DNA of 64,000 nucleotides from a virus. The notes beneath the pieces were generated by a model. The model searched no databases and was not told where the DNA came from. It saw only the letters and a list, made by a program, of their open reading frames with translations. The translations under genes were made by a program, and so were the position numbers. Location of the stretch: positions 1 to 64,000 of the IMG/VR virus record IMGVR_UViG_3300031753_000002; one strand, written 5' to 3'. This document shows, in pieces, positions 3,565-59,737 of this stretch (positions are counted from its first letter, which is position 1; every line of letters begins with the position of its first letter).

Positions 3565-3711
3565 GTGTGATCCTATGATAGTGCTGGCAAATTCCAGGGG
3601 TCGGCGGTTCGGGAAGGTGTAGGCAATGGCAGCGCGAGCCGAGCGCGCACAACCATTTGGTCGGGCGCGCGGCCTCAATTACTGCGTCGAAGATTTCCTC
3701 AGGGGCGCTCA

Positions 3712-5314: not shown

Positions 5315-5605
5315 TTAAGGAAGGATTGGCTCATAATTGAGCCATGGCCCCGGTCGCCTGGGCTTGAAGCCCGGCGGCAGCTTCGGGAGGCTGGCGGCAG
5401 TGAGGACTCCGCCTGTAGCCGCTGTCTCAGGACCGGGCGCGACGAAGCTCGCCCACGGGCTTCCTACGGGCATCTGGCCGGTCAAAAAAGCCTCCATAAT
5501 CATCCTATCGAGGTCGCGCGTCATGTCGGCCGTGATCCGGGCAGCCGTCGCCTCGATCCGGCGCGGCTCGGGGTCTTCACCGGTCGGAACCTCGAATTGA
5601 ATCAC
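5315..5605 (-). CDS. Hypothetical protein
   Basis: GTG start overlapping the upstream TGA. Confidence 0.4.
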   Translation of the reverse strand: MIQFEVPTGEDPEPRRIEATAARITADMTRDLDRMIMEAFLTGQMPVGSPWASFVAPGPETAATGGVLTAASLPKLPPGFKPRRPGPWLNYEPILP

Positions 5606-6153
5606 CAATCCCAGCCGGTCATACCGCACAAGTTCACCCGGTTCATGCTCGGCGTGGCCCACCGCAAATTGCCCCGCCGGCAGTTCATCGCGTCGCTGTC
5701 CCGATGGTCTACCATCTTGTGCAACAGGGATGGCGGTTCGATTCCTGTCCGCTGCATCACCGCCACGTGCAACCAAATCGTTCGCTGCACCCGGCAAGCT
5801 CCGGTACGGTCGCTCCCGACACGCCTGAGATAGAAGCGCCGCCCACCGCGGGACCATTTGACTGACCATCGCCATCGGATTGCCCACTCGTAATCGATTT
5901 CATCAACAACCGCCCAAACCGAGGCGCGGTCATCCCCATAGATGCGCCGCTCGGGCGCTGTCAGTTCCCAGGTGCGCGGGTCGAAGGGATCGTCGGCAGT
6001 TTCATATGGGCCGGGCCTGTCGCCTGAGAAAGTCCTGGGCCTGGGCAGCGCGAGCGTGGGGTGAGTCGTCAACGATGTGCCAAAGCCGGGTGTAGAAGCT
6101 GCGACCGTCGTGAACGACGAAGACCTCGCTAAAAGGGCATTGCTTGCCATCAA
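5602..6153 (-). CDS. HNH homing endonuclease (HNH_3-like); true start probably downstream of 6153
   Basis: AVVDEIDYEW...LHVAVM...VDHRDSDAMNCRRGNLRWATPSMN. Confidence 0.75.
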   Translation of the reverse strand: MMASNALLARSSSFTTVAASTPGFGTSLTTHPTLALPRPRTFSGDRPGPYETADDPFDPRTWELTAPERRIYGDDRASVWAVVDEIDYEWAIRWRWSVKWSRGGRRFYLRRVGSDRTGACRVQRTIWLHVAVMQRTGIEPPSLLHKMVDHRDSDAMNCRRGNLRWATPSMNRVNLCGMTGWDW

Positions 6154-8206: not shown

Positions 8207-8413
8207 TCATCGGAGTGAAGCATCTCCATTGGTCGATTGAGAGCGGACCTTTTGCGCCGCCGCTAGGGCAGCCCAAGCTTCTAGCCGGCATCTCCCCTTT
8301 ACGCTCACATTCGCGTATATCCAATTTTGAGGATTCCACCATCGCCGTCTCCATCTGTAGATGGCCATTGCCGCTGCTTCTACCTCCAAAAACATCATCT
8401 CGTCTCGTGTCAC
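8207..8413 (-). CDS. Hypothetical protein
   Basis: 68-aa ORF overlapping the upstream stop. Confidence 0.4.
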   Translation of the reverse strand: MTRDEMMFLEVEAAAMAIYRWRRRWWNPQNWIYANVSVKGRCRLEAWAALAAAQKVRSQSTNGDASLR

Positions 8414-8709
8414 GGCACAAACGCCTTTCGCTGTCGTTTGTCATAGACCAGATTTTTCGGATCATGTCCAGTCATTCGTGCAAGTCGGTCCTTGGCGCGT
8501 CCGGCGCGCCCCATAGCCTCGCGTTCGCGGCCATGCGCTGTCAAGTGGCCTTGGGCATCAACCGAGCCCTGTTGCTGCAATATCTCGATCGCAAGTTGAT
8601 GTGCAGCAACCGGCGCATGACCCTTGGCGCGAAGCTGCCCCTCAAGGCTATCCACAAGTCCGTGCGTGAAGCGCCCATGGTCATCGCGGGGCTGATCGGG
8701 ATTTGCCAT
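8410..8709 (-). CDS. Small basic protein with N-terminal PRDDHGRFT motif
   Basis: MANPDQPRDDHGRFTHG; GAGG RBS. Confidence 0.65.
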   Translation of the reverse strand: MANPDQPRDDHGRFTHGLVDSLEGQLRAKGHAPVAAHQLAIEILQQQGSVDAQGHLTAHGREREAMGRAGRAKDRLARMTGHDPKNLVYDKRQRKAFVP

Positions 8710-8887
8710 CTAACCTCACTCCACCTTGACGCGGAAGAGATAACGCATCCTCAAGAGAAAGTCCAGCCCGGAGCCGTTCATAAACCGTCGAATACGGCAC
8801 GCCGCGTGCCCGTGTTATGCTTTGCAACGAGTCTGGATTTGGTTTGCGACCTGCAATCGGTCCGCGCTTCTTGTTCCATTCCATCAT
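8681..8887 (-). CDS. Stand-alone HTH DNA-binding module of the type found in homing endonucleases
   Basis: RARGVPYSTVYERLRAGLSLEDALS resembles the two HTH repeats of the adjacent endonuclease. Confidence 0.55.
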   Translation of the reverse strand: MMEWNKKRGPIAGRKPNPDSLQSITRARGVPYSTVYERLRAGLSLEDALSLPRQGGVRLDGKSRSAPR

Positions 8888-8896
8888 ACATCTCCA

Positions 8897-9409
8897 TCAT
8901 ACATCCGTTGCTAGGAGAAGATCGCGCAGACCGCGGCCGGACACCGAATCAGCGAGCGCAGCCTTGCCGTGCTTTAGCAGATAGGCTATGGCCTTTGCAA
9001 GCCTCTCGGGATCATCTCCAAATTGGCCTAAACCTAGGTTGCACTCCGGGCATAGCCAACCCCGGAATTTTCCGGTTGCGTGGTCATGATCCGCGTGAAG
9101 CCGCGCCACCGCCTGCCCGCAACATTCACATTGACCATTTTCAGAAAGCGCTTGATCTAAAGTCAATCCGTATCGATTGCGTCGCTTATAGATGGTCGTT
9201 CGGTGTACTCCCGCCGCATCACATCGTCTCGAAATCTCGCCTTGCACCCGCAAGGGAATTGCGATGGCTTCGGCTACGGAAAGCCCTCGGTCAGTAATTC
9301 GTCGCCAAATCGTTTTTGGGTTGAACCCGGCGGCAATCGCCGCAGCGTGATACCCGCGCGTTCGCGGATCACCACAAAATCGGCCGTTTGCATCGCGTTT
9401 CTTAAACAT
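8897..9409 (-). mobile_element. Endonuclease VII-family homing endonuclease, C-terminally fused to a copy of the helicase C-terminus
   Basis: CECC...HADHDHATGKFRGWLCPECNLGLG...DD...L.KAIAYL; two HTH repeats; last 19 aa identical to the helicase end. Confidence 0.85.
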
Positions 9410-10847
9410 CGGTCGCCAACAATAAGTCTCGTAATCCTCTTCCACTTACACTGTCCGCAAGCGTTGCTTTAGAGTCAACTATGGCCCAATTTCTATCGTC
9501 CACCGTGCCGGGCGTCGTGATTCGTACGATGCTCACTGTCTTGCCGCCCTTCACAGTCGCCCGTTCCTCCGATTGCCTGATTCGAATCGCATCCGGAATT
9601 GATGAAAAGTATATAACCGCATCTGCGGCCGAAAAGTCAAGCCCCTCGCCCCCGGCGCCCGGCTGGCCGACCTGGACTAGCTTACGCGGATTGTTCTGGA
9701 ATGCGAGTCGAGTCGGCTCGCGCTGGTCCTGCGGCACACCGCCATGGTACTCCAAGATGCTGTTCTTGTACCCATGGGATTGCAGGAACAAGACCACGCG
9801 GCGAATATCCTCCCGATAGCGGCACCACACAAGCGACTTGCCGGGAAGCGTCCCGTCTACTTGCTCTTTCAGCGCCCAATAAATCGGTGCGTCCGGGTCC
9901 ACCGTCACGATGCACCCATCCTTCATCATGTAGCCGTTGATGATTTGCTGTAGCTTCTGGACGCGGGCGCCCCCGTCGAGCGCTTCGACCTCGGTGCCCT
10001 CAATCTCGACAAGATGGTGGGAGACCATGGTCAGGTAGGCGCGTCGCTGAACCTCGCTCATGATGACCGGCCGCTCAGTCCGAATCAGCGCCGGCATATC
10101 GTGAAGCTCGCTGCGTAGGACGACAGAAGACCACGGAGCGAGCCGACTGCGCAATTCATCCATGTTTTTGTACTCGGCGAGCTTCCAATAATCCCGCCCG
10201 GAGTTGCGCTTCTGTTTCTCATATGTGGCATAGCGCGCCTGGAATTCGGTAAATGTTCGGAAGCCAAGCGCTTCCTTTTCGAGTAATTCGTATTGTGAAA
10301 AGGCCCTCAGAGGGCTGTTCAGCAATGGCGTTCCACTCTCGATCGTGCAGAATGTGGCGTGACGGGCGAGGCTACGGGCACGGAACGTACGTTTCGCCCC
10401 TGGCCGGCCAAAGTGGTGCGCCTCCGAAACAATCATCATGAACTTGCGATTGCAGGCTTTCAGAAACTCTCGAACGGCCTTTCTATTGTCATGATGTTCC
10501 AAAGCCTCTATATTAATCGCGAACCATTTGAGACCGCGGTGCGCCAGCAATGCACGCCACTTGTCAATCTGTGCGTTGTCGGCGCGGCGCCCTGTTTGCC
10601 ATGCGAAGCCTACGTGGCGCCCGTTCTCAGGCCACGCCCATTTAGGAACCTCATTTTGAATCCAATTGATATGCACGCCGTTCGGGGCGATGATGATGAC
10701 GCCTTCGATCGCGCCCTTACCATGTTGCCAACACGCCTTATCGATGCACGCCTTGCTTTTTCCTGAGCGCATCGGCCATATCAAAGCGCGAGATTTCTTC
10801 TCGCGATGGCGCTTGAATTCACGGGCTTGGTGAGGCCAGTCTTTCAT
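9402..10847 (-). CDS. SNF2-family (SF2) DNA helicase
   Basis: MRSGKS Walker A, SEAHH Walker B variant, SGTP, GGEGLDF, QSEERA. Confidence 0.88.
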   Translation of the reverse strand: MKDWPHQAREFKRHREKKSRALIWPMRSGKSKACIDKACWQHGKGAIEGVIIIAPNGVHINWIQNEVPKWAWPENGRHVGFAWQTGRRADNAQIDKWRALLAHRGLKWFAINIEALEHHDNRKAVREFLKACNRKFMMIVSEAHHFGRPGAKRTFRARSLARHATFCTIESGTPLLNSPLRAFSQYELLEKEALGFRTFTEFQARYATYEKQKRNSGRDYWKLAEYKNMDELRSRLAPWSSVVLRSELHDMPALIRTERPVIMSEVQRRAYLTMVSHHLVEIEGTEVEALDGGARVQKLQQIINGYMMKDGCIVTVDPDAPIYWALKEQVDGTLPGKSLVWCRYREDIRRVVLFLQSHGYKNSILEYHGGVPQDQREPTRLAFQNNPRKLVQVGQPGAGGEGLDFSAADAVIYFSSIPDAIRIRQSEERATVKGGKTVSIVRITTPGTVDDRNWAIVDSKATLADSVSGRGLRDLLLATDV

Positions 10848-11043
10848 GGGGCACCTTGCACGCGTCTAGGAACGTGTCGCGTTTGAATCCGCCGGCTCCG
10901 CGCTCGCCCGCCAATTCGTCGGCGAGATGGTTCGCTATATACCGGCGGAGCGCTTCGCCGTCAACCGGGAGAGTCCCTCGGTTGCATCGCTTTTCAGCCT
11001 CACGAAGCACTCGAGCAATCAAATCATAATCGCGTCGATTCAT
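10819..11043 (-). CDS. Hypothetical protein
   Basis: MNRRDYDLIARVL...F.RD.FLDAC, a pattern typical of small phage proteins. Confidence 0.6.
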   Translation of the reverse strand: MNRRDYDLIARVLREAEKRCNRGTLPVDGEALRRYIANHLADELAGERGAGGFKRDTFLDACKVPHERLASPSP

Positions 11044-14291: not shown

Positions 14292-14618
14292 TCAAATACC
14301 CTCTAGCTTATCAAAGGCCCGCATCAGTTCCTCGGCTAGGCTTGATCCGGTGAGAGAATCGAGCACAACGAAAGAGAGTTCGCCACCTTCGTCATCGAGC
14401 AACATCAATCGCATCTTCTGGCCGGGCAGGTCAACATCAACGCGGACATCCTGCGCGGGAAAAACATCCCCGGATTCCAGAGCTTGTTCATTTCGCCCGA
14501 GCCGGCGCACCGCATCGGATGCAAGCTTCAAGACCATTTGATAGCAGGGCTCAAGGTCGTCCGCGCGTCGAATACGGTCCAGCCGGCGCGCGAGAGTTTG
14601 CGCAGTAGGGTCCATCAT
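14292..14618 (-). CDS. Hypothetical protein
   Basis: ATGA overlap with the polymerase stop. Confidence 0.55.
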   Translation of the reverse strand: MMDPTAQTLARRLDRIRRADDLEPCYQMVLKLASDAVRRLGRNEQALESGDVFPAQDVRVDVDLPGQKMRLMLLDDEGGELSFVVLDSLTGSSLAEELMRAFDKLEGI

Positions 14619-17600
14619 TTTCGCAACCGGTGCCCTATCCAGCCTTCCGCCGCAATGGGCATCCCAGGCGCCCACCCCACGTCAGCCGCCATCATGGCTT
14701 CGAATTCCTTGACTGTGGCCGTGCCGATGGGGGCCTCGGCTATGACCTCGTCATGTATCGACAAGAGTAAGTCGAAATCGGGTTCCATGTCAACCCGGAA
14801 CATGGCCTCGGCCAATAAATCACGCGAAGACGCCTGATCCGCGTTTTCCACCAAAGTTCCGCCATGCGTGCCGCACCGCTGCCACTGCTTCGTGATGATA
14901 TTGCGGCCCATGAAACTCAGGTGTGGCGAGAGAAAATTCTCAGGTGGGTCCTGCGTCAGCCGCTTGCGCTGCTTATCAGCTAGCTTCTCGGCATGGTAGC
15001 GGGCGCTCGCTGTCGAGACGCCGATCTTCGCCTGGAAATTAACCTTGCACGGCTTGCTGCGCTCATTGATGGCGTTGAAGCGCCATGTGCATCGCGTATG
15101 AACCTCCGGATACAGATAGGCGAGTAATCGACCACTCGGCAGGCGGCAATGCAGGAAAGGGCCGGACACAAAATAGCTGACGGCGCCGATGCCTGTTTCG
15201 TCGCCTCCCGCGTAGCGCTCGCCACCAAGCATCACAGCATCGATCGCCGCGGCGTTGTAGTCTTTCCACAACCTGGGGACCTCGGGGCACTTGTCCTTGC
15301 GATAGACCTTCACGACCATCTGACAGAATTCGTCTTCAAGCCATATGCCTTCTTCTGCCCAAACGGTAGCCTGGAATTTCTCCCATCCCATGGAGTTATG
15401 AACGATCATAGGACCATCACAGGTCAAAATCATATATCGATTCCGTGGCCCTGAATCGATTAAATCATATACTTTTTCCTTTCTGCCGACGCGTATTTCT
15501 ACATTGCTCACTCCGAGTCGTGAAGCGAATATTGCCCGGCTCATAGCCGCAATCATTATCCCTTCGATCCATTTCAAGGTGTGAATCATCCCAACCTGGC
15601 AACGTCCGAATATGTCTGAGAAAAGCGGCTCGATCTTTGTACCAATCCAAGCAGACCTCGATCCCTCGGGCGCCGTAATCTTTGAATTTAGGATTTCGTG
15701 TGTTGTGGCATCGTCCGATTGCCGCGGATAATCGATTAAGGTGTCGTTCTCGGTGCTCACTTTCTGGCATTGCGGCTTTGTATGCCGCATGTCTTCGATC
15801 CGCTGCCGCATGTTTCGAACAGATGTTGCAACGCGTTGAGCGACCGGCGCGCCAATTCGCCAAATCGATTTGATGTTCCGGCGCTCCGCATTTGCACCGC
15901 ACCACGATCCGTTTGACGCCGTTGCGAGGACCGACGATATACCCAACAACGGTAAGGCTTCCTTGCCGGCTGCCAATGCGCGGGAGCGCAAGGTCTCGTT
16001 GGCGACCACTTTCCCGGCATGGTGGAACCGATCCTCGCACCATATGGGATGATCCATCGTCGAGAATGAATCGCCCAAATTCGTCACGGATTTTTCGCCG
16101 TTGCATACAAGTCCTTTATGACTCACCCATTCGATCCCATCCCATAGCATATCTGAATCGGCTTTGTCAATCCGAACCCATCCACGTTTCGTCAAGATAA
16201 GAGTGTCAGCGGCATGGCAATAGCCGAGACCAAGTATGGCTCGCTTGCCTAGAGCGCGCTTATCAGGATGATTGTTCTTGAACCACTTGATTTGCTCTTT
16301 GTCCGTGGCATCGCATTCCATCTTGTAGATGCCGCACGCCATATCGATATACGGGTCGCCGCCAGTTCGGAACAGAAGCAATTGCGATGCGCAACCAGAA
16401 AGCCACGCCAGTTTTCGGGCCTCGATTGCGTTGAAATCGGCGGCATAGAGTTCCTTTCCAGGCGACGCGACCAACGCGCCCCGACACGCCTTGGCAAGCG
16501 CGGGCAACGGCTCACCCCATATGAGCGTGATGTATTCGCGGTCTAACGTGAGAATGTCGTCCCACGCCTTGCACATATCCTTCGAATACCCGCGGACAAA
16601 GTTGTGAGGCTGTACGCCCTTGCCGGACCACCGGCCAGTTCGGTCGGCGCCGTTGTAGAGCATAATGTCGTGAAGGCGCCCGTCCGGGCACATCGATTCG
16701 ACCATCTGCTTATACTTGCTGACTGAGGTCCTGTTGACCTCAAGGCAGATTTCCAGCGCGCGATGCAGCGGCTCGCCGGCTTCGCCGAATTGTTCCCATT
16801 TTGCGTCAGTTGCCGGTCGTGCAGCATCCTTGGCTTCGTCACCGGCCTTCGTCGGCACACCGTATAACTCGAAGCTTAGCGTGTCGGCCTTGGTGTCGAG
16901 AAGCCCGACCGCTCCGGGATTTATCACTTGGATCGTTTCGTTAGCCCACTTTTTGAACACCGCTCGACGCGAACCGCGGTCAACTCGGCCGCCAGTGATT
17001 TCGAAAAGCTCCGAATTGAGCCTGTCAGTTTCGAGGCGGGCAAGTTCCAGCGCCTCTCGCGCCGCGGTTTCGTCGAGTAGGATGCCGCGCTGATTCATGC
17101 GGAAATCCATGCGCCAGTATTCTAGCTCTCTTTCTGTCATTTCGGGGCACCAATTGCTGTACTCGCGTTCGGTGCGCACGTCCTGTTTGCAGTAGTCCCA
17201 ATTGCGGCGATGCTCGATTTCTTCCTCGCAGAAACGAGCTATCTGCGGCTGACCGCGGCGGCGAGGCATCGGCTTACTGAGCTTGTTTATCAGTCGGCGC
17301 CCATCAACGAGCTTCTGGTTATCCAGGCCGATCGCCTTGGCCGCGTCACCGAGCGCGCGAGGCAGAGACATGCACGACCCTTTCGCAGCGGAGCACCGCA
17401 TTTGTTCTAAACGCAACGCCACGCGGAATTCCGGGAACTCGCGTAGGAGCGGGCCATTCCATATCGAGAACTCGAAATAGGAATTGTGAGCTTCGAAAAT
17501 CTCGCCGTCCGCGACGCGTTCGATTAATTCGAGAAAGTCAGGATCATCTTCAGGGGTCTTGTCAATCCAGGGATGACCACGATGCCAAAGTCTAATTCGA

Positions 17601-17722
17601 CCCTCTTGCCCGTAGGTCCAGCAGGCACAAAGAGCTTGAGTTTGATCATCGGTAGCGTAGCGTGTCGCCCCGAGCTTAATCAAGTCCACAACGCCCCGAG
17701 TCTCAAAATCAAAAAAGATCAT
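14615..17722 (-). CDS. polA: Family A DNA polymerase with 3'-5' exonuclease domain and an intein
   Basis: DFET (ExoI), AHNSYFE, YCKQDV, RTGRWSG, ADFNAIEAR (motif A), R..GK..ILGLGY (motif B), IHDEVI (motif C). Confidence 0.93.
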   Translation of the reverse strand: MIFFDFETRGVVDLIKLGATRYATDDQTQALCACWTYGQEGRIRLWHRGHPWIDKTPEDDPDFLELIERVADGEIFEAHNSYFEFSIWNGPLLREFPEFRVALRLEQMRCSAAKGSCMSLPRALGDAAKAIGLDNQKLVDGRRLINKLSKPMPRRRGQPQIARFCEEEIEHRRNWDYCKQDVRTEREYSNWCPEMTERELEYWRMDFRMNQRGILLDETAAREALELARLETDRLNSELFEITGGRVDRGSRRAVFKKWANETIQVINPGAVGLLDTKADTLSFELYGVPTKAGDEAKDAARPATDAKWEQFGEAGEPLHRALEICLEVNRTSVSKYKQMVESMCPDGRLHDIMLYNGADRTGRWSGKGVQPHNFVRGYSKDMCKAWDDILTLDREYITLIWGEPLPALAKACRGALVASPGKELYAADFNAIEARKLAWLSGCASQLLLFRTGGDPYIDMACGIYKMECDATDKEQIKWFKNNHPDKRALGKRAILGLGYCHAADTLILTKRGWVRIDKADSDMLWDGIEWVSHKGLVCNGEKSVTNLGDSFSTMDHPIWCEDRFHHAGKVVANETLRSRALAAGKEALPLLGISSVLATASNGSWCGANAERRNIKSIWRIGAPVAQRVATSVRNMRQRIEDMRHTKPQCQKVSTENDTLIDYPRQSDDATTHEILNSKITAPEGSRSAWIGTKIEPLFSDIFGRCQVGMIHTLKWIEGIMIAAMSRAIFASRLGVSNVEIRVGRKEKVYDLIDSGPRNRYMILTCDGPMIVHNSMGWEKFQATVWAEEGIWLEDEFCQMVVKVYRKDKCPEVPRLWKDYNAAAIDAVMLGGERYAGGDETGIGAVSYFVSGPFLHCRLPSGRLLAYLYPEVHTRCTWRFNAINERSKPCKVNFQAKIGVSTASARYHAEKLADKQRKRLTQDPPENFLSPHLSFMGRNIITKQWQRCGTHGGTLVENADQASSRDLLAEAMFRVDMEPDFDLLLSIHDEVIAEAPIGTATVKEFEAMMAADVGWAPGMPIAAEGWIGHRLRK
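15395..16219 (-). mobile_element. Intein (275 aa) in motif B of the DNA polymerase
   Basis: LGLGY|CHAADTLILTKRGW...TMDH...VYDL...IVHN|SMG: Cys1, block B TxxH, block F, terminal His-Asn, Ser+1. Confidence 0.92.
15465..16106 (-). mobile_element. HNH-type homing endonuclease encoded out of frame within the intein
   Basis: RCKCG...CNIC...RCHN.RN..FKDYGARGIEVC..W...MDRRDNDCGYEPGNIRFTTRSEQCRN; AAGGA RBS 5 nt upstream. Confidence 0.85.
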
Positions 17723-18135
17723 TTGGATTTCTCCAAATAATCAGCCATTCGCCGGAGTAGCTGTGGATCGTCTTTGACGCTGCCAAGAGTTAAGTTGCAC
17801 GCTCTACAAATCCAACCACGAAACCGCTTTGATGTATGGCAATGATCTAGCGCTAGAGATATGCGCTTGTCATAAAGCTCACACTTATCCGGCATCGGAC
17901 GATTTGGAATTTCACAACCCAAGCGACGCGCGATAATCTCGGGTCGCTTTCGATAAGCCTGTTGTTTCTCTCTATACCCGGAGTCATTGTTATAGTTGGT
18001 TTTCATCCAGGTTCGGTGCTTTTCTTTTACATCTGGACGCTGATTATAAATTATTCTTTTTGCTCGATACCGCTGAGCATAGAACTGGCGTTTTCGTTCT
18101 ATCATCTGATCGTATGAGAGGCCAAGAGATCGCAT
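17719..18135 (-). mobile_element. Endonuclease VII-family homing endonuclease, possibly degenerate
   Basis: LDHCHTSKRFRGWICRACNLTLG..KDD...LRRMADYL; the first CxxC reads CELY; AT-rich DNA. Confidence 0.8.
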
Positions 18136-18620
18136 CAATACAGCGATGGATAGACGTAGCAGAACACATCGCGTCCAGTGGAGGTCATCCAAACCCAGCC
18201 GTGCCCCGTTATATTCGGATGCGCCGGGTCCGGCGGAACAATGCGGTCCTTCGGAATGAGGATGCGCGTGCCGGCCGGGATGCGAGTCTTGCAATCGCGT
18301 TCGCCGTCATTCTGACAATATGGCTGTTCGGCCTCTGCCGCGGCGGCCTTTTCCGGGGTGTCGCCCTCAGTGATGATCGCCCAAAGCTCGCCGCCCTGCG
18401 TATCCAGTTCGTCGGCCTCATAGGCATCGGCCGGACCGCAGCACGAATCGTGATTCCAATCGCCGGTCCATGGGCGCGTATTTGGCCGCTTCTGATTTGA
18501 GAGGAAATCTCTTGTCGCGTCGGCGATCCTATCCCAGGCGCCGGGATAGAGCGGACGCGCGGGTGCGTAAACGACTCCGATCACGAGACAGACCACAGTG
18601 CATATCGACAACACTTTCAT
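18135..18620 (-). CDS. Exported protein with a CC motif
   Basis: Signal-peptide-like N-terminus; SCCGPADAY...G.GWVW...VFCY. Confidence 0.65.
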   Translation of the reverse strand: MKVLSICTVVCLVIGVVYAPARPLYPGAWDRIADATRDFLSNQKRPNTRPWTGDWNHDSCCGPADAYEADELDTQGGELWAIITEGDTPEKAAAAEAEQPYCQNDGERDCKTRIPAGTRILIPKDRIVPPDPAHPNITGHGWVWMTSTGRDVFCYVYPSLY

Positions 18621-38312: not shown

Positions 38313-38642
38313 ATGGTGAATCAGCGTAAAGTTCGTGCTCGCTCTGTTCGATATCGGGCTGCACATCCGCAACGCGTGCGCGATTCGGATAGATCACGCC
38401 GCGCTCGAAAAATGGGCTATGAACCGCCACCTTCTGAAAAGGATTGTTCGGCACGACCACGTGATGGTCGATGCGATTGTTGTTTACGGCCGACAATACG
38501 ATTTCATTTAGATCACGACCATGTAACCGGCGCGTTTCGCGGCTGGGTTTGTGGTCCGTGCAATCAATCAGCTTTTCCTGATGATCCGGTGCGATTGCGA
38601 GAACGCGCCGATTTTCTGGATCGTAAATTACCTTGGCAGTGA
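38313..38642 (+). mobile_element. Endonuclease VII-family homing endonuclease flanked by the duplicated promoter motif
   Basis: RP.DGRCDCC...HLDHDHVTGAFRGWVCGPCN...DDP.RL...ADFL. Confidence 0.8.
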
Positions 38643-51611: not shown

Positions 51612-51735
51612 AGCCATGGTAGGCAGCGCTTGATGTAACCATGTTGCATCATCGGCCCACCCTTGACCAGTGTTGCAAGTAGCGTGGCACCATCCAAGAA
51701 ATTGTCCTGTATCGTGACAGTGGTCCATATGTAGG
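51610..51735 (-). pseudogene. Endonuclease VII remnant (antisense)
   Basis: LHMDHCHDTGQFLGWCHATCNTGQG..DD; no N-terminal half. Confidence 0.6.
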
Positions 51736-51750
51736 GCGGCTGGGTCCGCA

Positions 51751-58998: not shown

Positions 58999-59367
58999 AT
59001 GGCAGGATTCAACTACCTGGGTACACGGGCGACAGCGGACAAGTTGATCAAACGGTTCGGTATGAAGGCAGCCCTTCGCCGAGCCGGCGACACCCCAACG
59101 GATCGTGAGTGCTGGGTATGCATCTATGACTACATGCCGAGCGACAAAGCGACGGCGCTAGCGAACCCGACCGACCGCAAAGTCATCATGTCGGTAGGAC
59201 TAGGCGCGGTGCTCAATGAGCCGCCCGACAACGAGAAGGACCAGCTTGTGACGTTTATCCAGCCGGCAGGCACGGTTCAAAACGAGGTTCTGCCGTTCAC
59301 ATGCCCTCCGAAGCCGTTCGCCCCAGCGGGGGTTAATGTGCTTTGGGAGTTCACCGTTCGGCGTTAA
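58999..59367 (+). CDS. Head closure / head-tail joining protein
   Basis: Y...RATA.KLI.RFG...L.R...DRK...PAG..VLW...VRR. Confidence 0.7.
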   Translation: MAGFNYLGTRATADKLIKRFGMKAALRRAGDTPTDRECWVCIYDYMPSDKATALANPTDRKVIMSVGLGAVLNEPPDNEKDQLVTFIQPAGTVQNEVLPFTCPPKPFAPAGVNVLWEFTVRR

Positions 59368-59737
59368 GATAGGAGACCGCGCGCATCAGAGATTCGGCGT
59401 CATCGCCAAGCAGCCCCAAACCGGCATTGCAGTTGCGACAAAGCCATCCTCGAAACCGTCCGGTAACATGGTCATGATCTATGCAAAGCACCGCCCTCTT
59501 GTGGCAAAGCTCGCAACAGCCATCTTCGGGCGGGGAGCGAAGCGTGCTTTCATCGAGCAATGCATGCCCTTCATTAAGGGCACGCCTCTGAATTGCGGCC
59601 ACTCGTATCTTGACTCGGTTTATGGTCTGGTACGTATGATTTTTGGCGCGACCACGGGGCGTCTTCCCGTAGTCGCTTTGGCTCTTTCGAATGCGGTCGG
59701 GATGGCGCGCTTTGTATCGAGTATGCCGTTCGGACAT
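59351..59737 (-). mobile_element. Endonuclease VII-family homing endonuclease (antisense to the tail operon)
   Basis: CELC...LCIDHDHVTGRFRGWLCRNCNAGLGLLGDD...L.RA..YL. Confidence 0.85.

Follow-up and report, generated by a model that had tools for sequence, protein, structure and literature searches.

A probable homing cassette with a recoded gene end in a phage SNF2 helicase gene

Introduction

How can an endonuclease gene settle inside the coding sequence of a conserved replication gene of a phage when nothing is spliced out afterwards? The question is raised by a locus in a 64,000-nucleotide stretch of virus DNA (the window, which is the first 64 kb of the 86,784-bp IMG/VR virus record IMGVR_UViG_3300031753_000002, a record with direct terminal repeats). 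There a helicase gene of the SNF2 family and the nuclease open reading frame (ORF) that follows it end in the same amino acids, written in almost entirely different codons. An earlier note on this DNA had proposed that the nuclease element inserted close to the helicase stop codon, supplied a synonymous replacement for the end of the gene and absorbed the old end. The analysis described here makes it likely that the nuclease gene is a free-standing homing cassette with an Endonuclease VII motif, lodged in the last 22–30 codons of the phage SNF2 helicase gene. The principle is already published: it was described for fungal mitochondria in 1994 and for yeast nuclei in 2020, and the present layout joins these cases. 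What is added is a quantified, near-maximal recoding and a family-level count of tail duplication.

Layout of the locus

On the minus strand the helicase gene, the nuclease ORF and a gene for 68 amino acids follow one another head to tail. The helicase matches Pfam SNF2-rel_dom (1.3e-8) and Helicase_C (6.3e-7) and falls in PHROG 62, 'DNA helicase' (1e-69). The features on which the argument turns are listed here, GC3 being the fraction of G and C at third codon positions.

9402–10847, minus strand: complete SNF2-family phage helicase gene of 481 aa; the C-terminal tail at its end is the one conserved in the family
9405–9470, minus strand: upstream ('new') tail, KATLADSVSGRGLRDLLLATDV, 22 codons that finish the helicase; rare, AT-ending codons
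9405–9494, minus strand: low-GC3 tract of about 30 codons (helicase codons 452–481), from sliding GC3
9402–9410, minus strand: stop/start overlap GATGTTTAA, in which the helicase D-V-stop shares bases with the nuclease ATG
8897–9409, minus strand: free-standing nuclease ORF of the Endonuclease VII type (HNH-like); 170 aa when read from the ATG at 9409
8900–8968, minus strand: downstream ('old') tail, G followed by KAALADSVSGRGLRDLLLATDV, forming the nuclease C-terminus in frame; stop at 8897–8899

The C-terminal end shared by the helicase and the nuclease ORF, in both followed by a stop codon, is LADSVSGRGLRDLLLATDV. Eighteen of its 19 codons differ between the two genes, and 30 of the 57 nucleotides are identical. 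The likeness extends further upstream, with K-A-x before both copies (DSKAT in the helicase, HGKAA in the nuclease), so that 21 of 22 residues agree. The copies also differ in composition, the 19 codons having a GC content of 47% upstream and 61% downstream. The earlier note had reported a 19/19-residue end with 18 of 19 codons unlike, AT-rich in the upstream copy and GC-rich in the downstream one; all of this was borne out, the likeness being longer than it had stated. It had also placed the insertion about 20 codons before the helicase stop. The position inside the 3' end of the gene stands, and the size has to be enlarged to a duplicated block of at least 22–23 codons within a low-GC3 tract of about 30.

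The nuclease most likely starts at the ATG at 9409. An alternative start, a GTG at 9445, would give an ORF of 182 aa (8897–9445, minus strand), whose 12 extra residues are absent from every homologue. The junction at GATGTTTAA is comparable to the stop/start overlap found at the native junction of the helicase and the downstream gene in relatives. At its other end the nuclease ORF runs into the old tail; since no stop codon stands between them, the old tail is read onto the nuclease. The claim that the nuclease had absorbed the displaced end thus agrees with the reading frame, in which the downstream tail is the nuclease C-terminus.

No splicing is needed for this arrangement, as the earlier note had supposed. 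Rfam gave no intron or other RNA family at E <= 1 in 8300–11000, and the helicase holds no in-frame protein-splicing domain. The helicase ORF runs without a break to a stop of its own, and a different frame encodes the nuclease. A group I or group II intron or an intein was considered and rejected, given the lack of an Rfam match, the uninterrupted helicase ORF and the position of the nuclease out of the helicase frame. According to a scan for promoters and terminators, which was otherwise uninformative, no terminator separates the three genes. No match to 8600–11000 was obtained by blastn among 50,697 phage records.

The layout has been seen in other assemblies. Logan contigs from three soil studies cover 9304–9551 and 9313–9485, and so the helicase, the new tail and the nuclease start, with 0–1 differences; others cover 8910–9060 and 8921–9071, the 3' part of the nuclease and the old tail, again with 0–1 differences. 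Because the contigs from three studies agree, the two-tail layout is not an artefact of one assembly.

Recoding of the helicase tail

The tails are spelled less alike than chance would make them. Among the 21 codons that specify the same residue in both copies only one is identical, and 29 nucleotide differences are found where 32 is the synonymous maximum. Random codon choice would leave 16.8–18.7 differences and 5.5–6.4 identical codons, as calculated with the usage of the genome, of the nuclease gene, of four nuclease genes and with uniform usage. Across these models the probability of at least 29 differences is 9e-7 to 8e-5, and that of at most one identical codon is 0.0015–0.0115. The only silent route to altering first and second codon positions is a switch between codon boxes. 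Such switches are found at seven of the nine Leu, Ser and Arg positions, compared with 2.1 expected (P 6e-4).

Natural tails provide an empirical control. For this, all 136 pairs of 17 tails were compared: the two of the window, two of a second nuclease-bearing IMG/VR record (L007) and 13 from other IMG/VR relatives. The window pair is the most diverged of the 136, with 1.38 differences per same-residue codon; the remaining pairs have a mean of 0.81 (standard deviation 0.19) and a maximum of 1.27, the latter on 11 codons. The pairs are not mutually independent, and the empirical margin is smaller than the model P-values suggest. The tail comparisons rest on 19–27 codons, and over these the divergence of the two tails exceeds both chance and synonymous saturation. 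A DNA repeat finder detected no repeat between the two copies. A donor of low GC content was considered as the sole cause of the codon pattern and rejected; a tilt in GC3 to 0.2–0.5 still predicts 6.2–6.3 identical codons.

Polarity of the two copies

Codon usage distinguishes the copies. Genes of this genome have a GC3 of 0.645 +/- 0.058, and the helicase as a whole has 0.656, compared with 0.50 for the nuclease gene and 0.33 for the new tail. Along the helicase the sliding GC3 falls from 0.6–0.8 to 0.2–0.5 from codon 452 on. The low-GC3 tract that results begins about 8 codons upstream of the duplicated block and is continuous with the low-GC3 nuclease gene; it is probably the extent of the helicase segment that travels with that gene. 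In codon typicality the new tail lies in the lowest 0.05% of 3944 windows of 22 codons taken from genes of this genome, and the old tail at the 5.6th percentile, inside the genome's range. The gene set used for codon usage was chosen by a longest-ORF heuristic and holds 77 ORFs, 74% of the genome.

Other features of the old copy suggest that it is the resident one. It begins with GK, as in the family consensus DGK, where the helicase now reads DSK. Downstream copies also adjoin the start of the next gene; the overlap is kept in L007, and in the window the copy stands at the former overlap, now a 9-nt gap. The upstream copy is probably the imported one because its codons are rare and its low-GC3 tract is continuous with the nuclease gene. 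Judged from composition, the upstream tail and the nuclease gene would form one foreign block, the downstream tail probably being resident. The polarity proposed in the earlier note (upstream imported, downstream native) is supported in this indirect way, by codon typicality and the GC3 tract, and the downstream tail of L007 fits its sub-lineage. Against the 14 more distant IMG/VR relatives, the old tail has 65 of 212 codons in common and the new tail 55 of 212.

Relatives of the helicase and further instances

In IMG/VR, 14 records carry a helicase 51–64% identical to that of the window. The nuclease is distributed patchily among them. Thirteen of the 14 lack it and have a single, uninterrupted tail with the family motif, its stop overlapping or close to another gene, and a loose search of these 13 for a second tail copy found none. 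A protein search gave no JGI helicase relative above 64% identity, nor did it add JGI members to the nuclease clade. In a collection of 5.8 billion proteins, the nearest helicase among the 120 matches listed is 72% identical. Every one of the 120 listed relatives stops at the same position with [LV]AD.[VLI]SG.GLRDLL..T[DN][VI], and the tail residues A, D, S, G, G, L, R, D, L, L and T do not vary in an alignment of six sequences. Because all 120 end alike, the helicase tail is regarded as conserved and presumably needed. The upstream tail of the window brings the helicase to this same end position, in keeping with the proposal that it restores the gene.

The fourteenth record, L007 (64.5 kb), has the same arrangement. 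Its helicase is about 56% identical to that of the window and ends in IIDGKISLADTVSGTGLRDLLMKTDI. The L007 nuclease shares 54% identity with that of the window; its gene begins on the helicase stop and is closed by a TAG of its own. The old tail, GIVDGKVTLADTVSGTGLRDLLRSTDI, lies after this TAG in the same frame, and its stop overlaps the ATG of the next gene; at 3585–3671 the single TAG is all that stands between the nuclease and the in-frame old tail. The repeat comprises 27 units (26 codons and the stop), with 60 of 81 nucleotides identical. GC3 in L007 is 0.66 for the helicase and 0.44 for the nuclease, and the drop occurs about 30 codons before the helicase stop. The old tail agrees with the helicase P0114 at 23 of 26 residues; the new tail has derived residues.

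A third instance is known as a protein from Logan/ENA assemblies. This protein, P0001, is a 152-aa nuclease 63% identical to that of the window; its end, given as TTLADSVSGRGLRDLLRATDI and as ...YLSRTTLADSVSGRGLRDLLRATDI, shows it to be fused to a helicase tail as well. The fused tail agrees with the native tail of P0044, a helicase, at 20 of 21 residues. The nuclease clade is rare, the 5.8-billion-protein collection having just three close homologues. One of these, P0002 (on a 623-bp contig), lacks a tail as a protein, and so does P0003 of the same clade.

The three nuclease-bearing lineages lie in different helicase sub-lineages. Their junctions between nuclease and old tail also differ, coming after ...AIAYLLKH in the window, after ...AIEYLSR in P0001 and after a stop codon in L007. 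All three old tails are intact and family-typical, and the three nucleases have diverged by 37–46%. Each new tail is closer in protein sequence to the old tail of its own genome than to the new tail of the other genome.

The nuclease

The nuclease is a clear member of the Endonuclease VII group. It matches Pfam Endonuclease_7 (PF02945) at 8.2e-19 and 67.7 bits, where the cut-off is 23.6 (69.3 bits in the genome search), and PHROG endonuclease VII families at 1e-23. Two parts can be distinguished.

8975–9145, minus strand: catalytic domain (CxxC ... DHDH ... CxxCN), the PF02945 match
9143–9346, minus strand: two helix-turn-helix-like repeats in the N-terminal half, sub-threshold Pfam HTH matches (E 0.04–0.14)

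Residues C94, C97, D107, H108, H110, C120, C123 and N124 are invariant in the four-member clade alignment; we take them to be the counterparts of the catalytic and zinc-binding residues of T4 Endonuclease VII. The helix-turn-helix-like repeats are kept in the alignment of the nuclease family and, given their weak Pfam scores, are presumed to be DNA-binding modules. The second repeat (9143–9217) resembles the product of the next gene (8738–8809) at 13 of 25 residues (E 7e-5), and genes after the helicase in nuclease-free relatives start with a similar helix-turn-helix-like module. The DNA-binding part of the nuclease may, from this resemblance, be related to the neighbour gene.

Tail duplication in the nuclease family

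A search of IMG/VR with the four-member clade alignment gave 446 confirmed loci, of which the best 80 were examined. Four of the 80 lacked the catalytic-motif pattern and 19 had no co-oriented upstream ORF of at least 70 aa, leaving 57 usable. At nine of these 57 loci the last residues of the upstream gene are repeated, anchored at a stop codon, at or just past the end of the nuclease. A control with mismatched pairings was positive once in 3036, so that 0.02 would be expected by chance among 57. One of the nine, L051, is the same record as L007.

Seven of the nine positives are marine, low-GC loci where the nuclease follows a clamp-loader gene of the gp44 type (Pfam Gp44_lid, AAA). The clamp-loader end, ECEF[KQ], recurs in frame at the nuclease end in L064, L075, L079 and L090. 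In L106 and L124 the copy is in another frame and ends 10 nt past the nuclease stop. L091 is likewise out of frame; there the copy that was scored begins 131 nt beyond the nuclease stop, a further copy overlapping the nuclease end. These marine loci belong to T4-like phage records, with the nuclease between the clamp-loader gene and the next gene, and their repeats agree at 15–19 of 21 nucleotides. In L120 (186–946) the nuclease follows a family A DNA polymerase gene and the repeated residues are IERVK, with four of the five codons re-spelled, including an Arg codon-box switch. Tail duplication, by this count, is suggested to be common in the family. Extreme recoding is a property of the window's copy and not of the layout in general.

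Three further loci (L113, L114 and L100) were noticed below the screen criterion and are not among the nine; L100 is grouped with the marine clamp-loader loci. In L113/L114 (2077–2719) the upstream gene is a DUF3310 gene, and LEYEYGKTI can be compared with LEWEYGTT, the stop having been lost; this is a likely case.

Neighbouring genes and other nucleases

The region downstream of the old tail has two features.

8681–8887, minus strand: next gene; 68 aa with a single helix-turn-helix-like module; corresponds to the gene directly after the helicase in nuclease-free relatives
8880–8905, no strand assigned: perfect 13-nt tandem duplication (8880–8892 and 8893–8905; 100%), from the repeat finder

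The 68-aa gene is without a Pfam or PHROG match. The 13-nt duplication spans the last two codons of the old tail, its stop and the start of the next gene, and with it the overlapping stop/start of the relatives has become a 9-nt gap. It may have arisen by slippage or as a repair scar.

Four further PF02945 matches are found in the genome, at 59351–59737 (minus), 17719–18294 (minus), 38313–38642 (plus) and 51627–51740 (minus). One of the further PF02945 matches ends on the start of a DNA polymerase gene (14615–17722). The match at 51627–51740 is a weak one, at 32.5 bits, and the major capsid region beside it is on the other strand. For the other three, inspection by eye, with no formal test, found no tail duplication. 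A nuclease of a different type is encoded at 5602–6153 (minus), with an HNH_3 match at E 1.9e-5 and 24.7 bits, just below the 24.8-bit cut-off. A similar ORF (HNH_3 at E 0.1 only) starts on the helicase stop in the relative L014 (4478–4861), where no second copy of the helicase tail was found. Nucleases of more than one family thus seem to favour the 3' end of the helicase gene as a landing site.

Proposed explanation

The locus is probably best explained as a homing cassette. The analysis establishes its architecture, the family of the nuclease, the patchy distribution, the recurrence and the extreme codon divergence; cleavage, immunity, homing and a selective cause for the recoding are inferred. 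The mobile unit would be the low-GC3 block, which consists of a replacement helicase tail and the nuclease gene. On insertion the replacement tail would complete the helicase with the same amino acids, and the displaced native tail would remain downstream. By analogy with the WHO elements of yeast and the mobile ORFs (mORFs) of fungal mitochondria (see below), the nuclease would, in a mixed infection, cut a nuclease-free helicase allele near the junction of body and tail. The break could then be repaired from the cassette-bearing genome, with the helicase body as left arm and the old tail plus the next gene as right arm, and the recoded tail and the nuclease gene would be copied in together.

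The unlike spelling of the new tail could serve such a cassette in several ways. It would shield the carrier from being cut by its own nuclease, keep the broken end from pairing upstream of the nuclease gene, so that transfer is not aborted, and prevent deletion between direct repeats. With repeated homing among close relatives, the recently functional tail of each recipient would become the old tail at each event, and the new tail, travelling with the nuclease, would be held to the local protein sequence by the function of the helicase. The intact old tails and the locally matching new tails fit repeated homing; they also fit a local origin of each duplication.

Whether the near-maximal re-spelling is itself an adaptation of the selfish element, selection having driven the tail as far from the native allele as the protein allows, is a more tentative matter. 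Such an adaptation would make the carrier immune to a nuclease that is sensitive to the first two positions of a codon. The old tail, serving as the right homology arm, would retain the native spelling and would be renewed with every homing event. The idea is held to be possible but doubtful because L007 has no such divergence.

Several observations count against the homing cassette or against its extreme recoding as a rule. The L007 pair has 8 identical codons of 21 and 13 of 28 possible differences, slightly below saturation, and near-maximal recoding is thus not general; the 5-codon repeats of the family screen are identical at 14–19 of 21 nucleotides. Real cross-genome pairs reach 1.27 differences per codon, if on a small number of codons, and the model P-values may overstate the case. 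The nearest nuclease-free relative, at 72% protein identity, is too far away for the native spelling of the tail to be read from it. No empty allele was seen among contigs of the three soil runs that hold the stretch (shares 0.49, 0.13 and 0.11; no joint and no variant), where a depth of 2–4x and partial cover mean that absence is not implied. Finally, the window's exact 19-residue tail occurs in 0 of 119 other listed helicases, and both L007 tails carry residues of their sub-lineage (T at tail position 4, T at 8 and a terminal I). As protein sequences, the unique 19-mer and the shared L007 residues would fit a local origin at least as well as import from a diverged donor.

These last points are what would be expected of a static local duplication, in which the nuclease gene arrived a single time and the end of the phage's own helicase was copied as a by-product of repair, or of duplicating the overlapping stop/start junction, the upstream copy being re-spelled in place by point mutations under selection. 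No tail would then accompany the nuclease, and the element would have lost its mobility. The 19/19 agreement of the tails in protein fits such an origin, as does the near-identity in DNA of the clamp-loader repeats, expected of fresh duplications, and so does the failure to see an empty allele in low-depth runs. It requires, however, about 29 silent changes without an amino-acid change in either copy, and seven codon-box switches by way of non-synonymous intermediates. An unused old tail should also decay, whereas all three remain intact while their nucleases differ, and the low-GC3 tract that runs from about 8 codons before the duplicated block into the nuclease resembles one imported block. 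A static duplication is accordingly considered unlikely, if the most serious of the alternatives. That the tail persists for a function of its own, as a docking motif for a replication partner to which the nuclease's copy recruits the nuclease, is less likely again; the two tails would then be identical through selection acting on each protein. No part of the helicase C-terminus is indeed better conserved than the tail, which nearly all of the 120 listed proteins have. Two of three nucleases continue into it in frame, each at a junction of its own, while in the third, where the frame is the same, one TAG intervenes, and the old tail has not decayed in amino acids. Yet the L007 old tail is well kept although it lies behind a stop codon, the clade members P0002 and P0003 have no tail as proteins, and the clamp-loader nucleases read into five host residues or end out of frame, as a by-product would.

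A reversed polarity, with the AT-rich upstream tail native and the GC-richer copy arriving fused to a nuclease that inserted after the helicase stop, is very improbable. The codons shared with distant relatives (65 versus 55 of 212) do not discriminate against it, and in the 5-codon repeat of L120 the downstream copy has the higher AT content. In the window, by contrast, it is the upstream copy that is the codon outlier of the genome and is linked by the low-GC3 tract to the nuclease gene, and it is the downstream copy that is ordinary in codon usage, has the consensus GK where the helicase has SK and retains the native junction with the start of the next gene; the downstream copy of L007 fits its sub-lineage as well. 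Strain variants can be joined in metagenome assemblies, and the two tails might in principle be those of two strains merged by the assembler. With the Logan contigs of three soil studies bridging both junctions and the same layout in the unrelated record L007, hardly any weight is left for such a chimera. The homing cassette is preferred over all of these.

Comparison with known systems

The closest parallels come from fungi. WHO elements at FBA1, the essential aldolase gene of yeast, are units of a nuclease gene and an upstream, resistance-conferring FBA1 3' end (Coughlan et al. 2020, PMC7282813). The displaced downstream FBA1 3' fragment supplies the homology for repair (PMC7282813, section 10), the 3' part of the host gene evolves as a chimera, and cleavage has been demonstrated for WHO6. 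As in the window, an endonuclease gene comes with a replacement for the 3' end of its host gene, and splicing is unnecessary. In contrast, WHO nucleases are intein-like LAGLIDADG/zinc-finger proteins that occur in tandem clusters in a eukaryotic nucleus (PMC7282813). The replaced stretch is about 400 bp with alleles 85% identical in WHO, compared with 66–90 bp and about 54% identity in the window (PMC7282813). The window, known here from its sequence, has an Endonuclease-VII-motif nuclease in a phage, with the old end translated onto the nuclease.

In Glomus mitochondria, mORFs with a foreign C-terminus have been described for atp6, atp9, cox2 and nad3 (Beaudet 2013, PMC3630166), and an atp6 mORF of Allomyces macrogynus is attributed there to Paquin 1994. 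These share with the window a C-terminal part of the host gene duplicated around an endonuclease ORF, the inserted copy being expressed with the gene. The native downstream copy resembles close relatives, and the copies differ mostly synonymously, with 64–81% nucleotide and 91–100% protein identity (PMC3630166). Unlike the window's nuclease, those of the mORFs are of the LAGLIDADG or GIY-YIG type, reside in organelles and are encoded by ORFs often in phase with the upstream gene (PMC3630166). The nuclease of the window starts independently, at a codon that overlaps the helicase stop, and shares its phase with the old tail downstream; the two tails diverge to near the synonymous maximum.

Among phages, intronless homing of the T4 type is carried out by free-standing endonuclease genes such as those for SegB, SegF, SegG and MobE (PMC2988022, PMC13565253). 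As in the window, the nuclease gene stands by itself, within or between conserved genes of the phage. These nucleases spread by break repair in mixed infections, and differences in nearby conserved genes mark self and non-self (PMC2988022, PMC13565253). The T4 cases differ from the window in being intergenic or in splitting a gene into two polypeptides (mobE/nrdA, mobA/gene 60, seg/gene 43). In its consulted portions, the T4 review PMC2988022 does not contain the words 'duplication' or 'duplicated'. F-CphI, of the DHHRN family (Fang et al. 2018, PMC6083498), is a free-standing phage nuclease with a C-terminal catalytic motif of T4 Endonuclease VII; it targets psbA beside an intron site in cyanophage S-PM2. 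The nuclease of the window is of the same Endonuclease VII-motif type by its PF02945 match and is likened to F-CphI by description. The abstract of PMC6083498 does not mention duplication of a host-gene tail.

Full-text literature searches, which covered main texts, surfaced no phage case of a replaced gene end. The consulted portions of PMC10448857 (Barth 2023), PMC3706429 (on Cluster J mycobacteriophages), PMC2988022 and PMC13565253 describe no phage gene-end replacement.

Significance

The locus suggests that a homing endonuclease of a phage needs neither intron nor intein to settle within the coding part of a conserved replication gene, if it brings a spare, re-spelled end with it. With the old tail as a record of the former allele and the junction as the probable target, the specificity of the nuclease can be tested directly. 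For annotation, nucleases with borrowed C-terminal peptides are to be expected, together with host genes whose last 20–30 codons have a separate history. Long recoded repeats, set against short unrecoded ones, also offer a gauge of the homology tolerated by phage recombination.

Synthetic 'home-and-rescue' or recoded-rescue drives place a nuclease gene in an essential gene together with a silently recoded, uncuttable remainder that restores function. The same design logic is found in the window; the drives are engineered with Cas9 in insects, whereas the window is natural. If the re-spelling is indeed adaptive, the divergence between repeats should rise with repeat length across phage nuclease cassettes, and the helicase tail would be a natural counterpart of the recoded-rescue design of synthetic gene drives.

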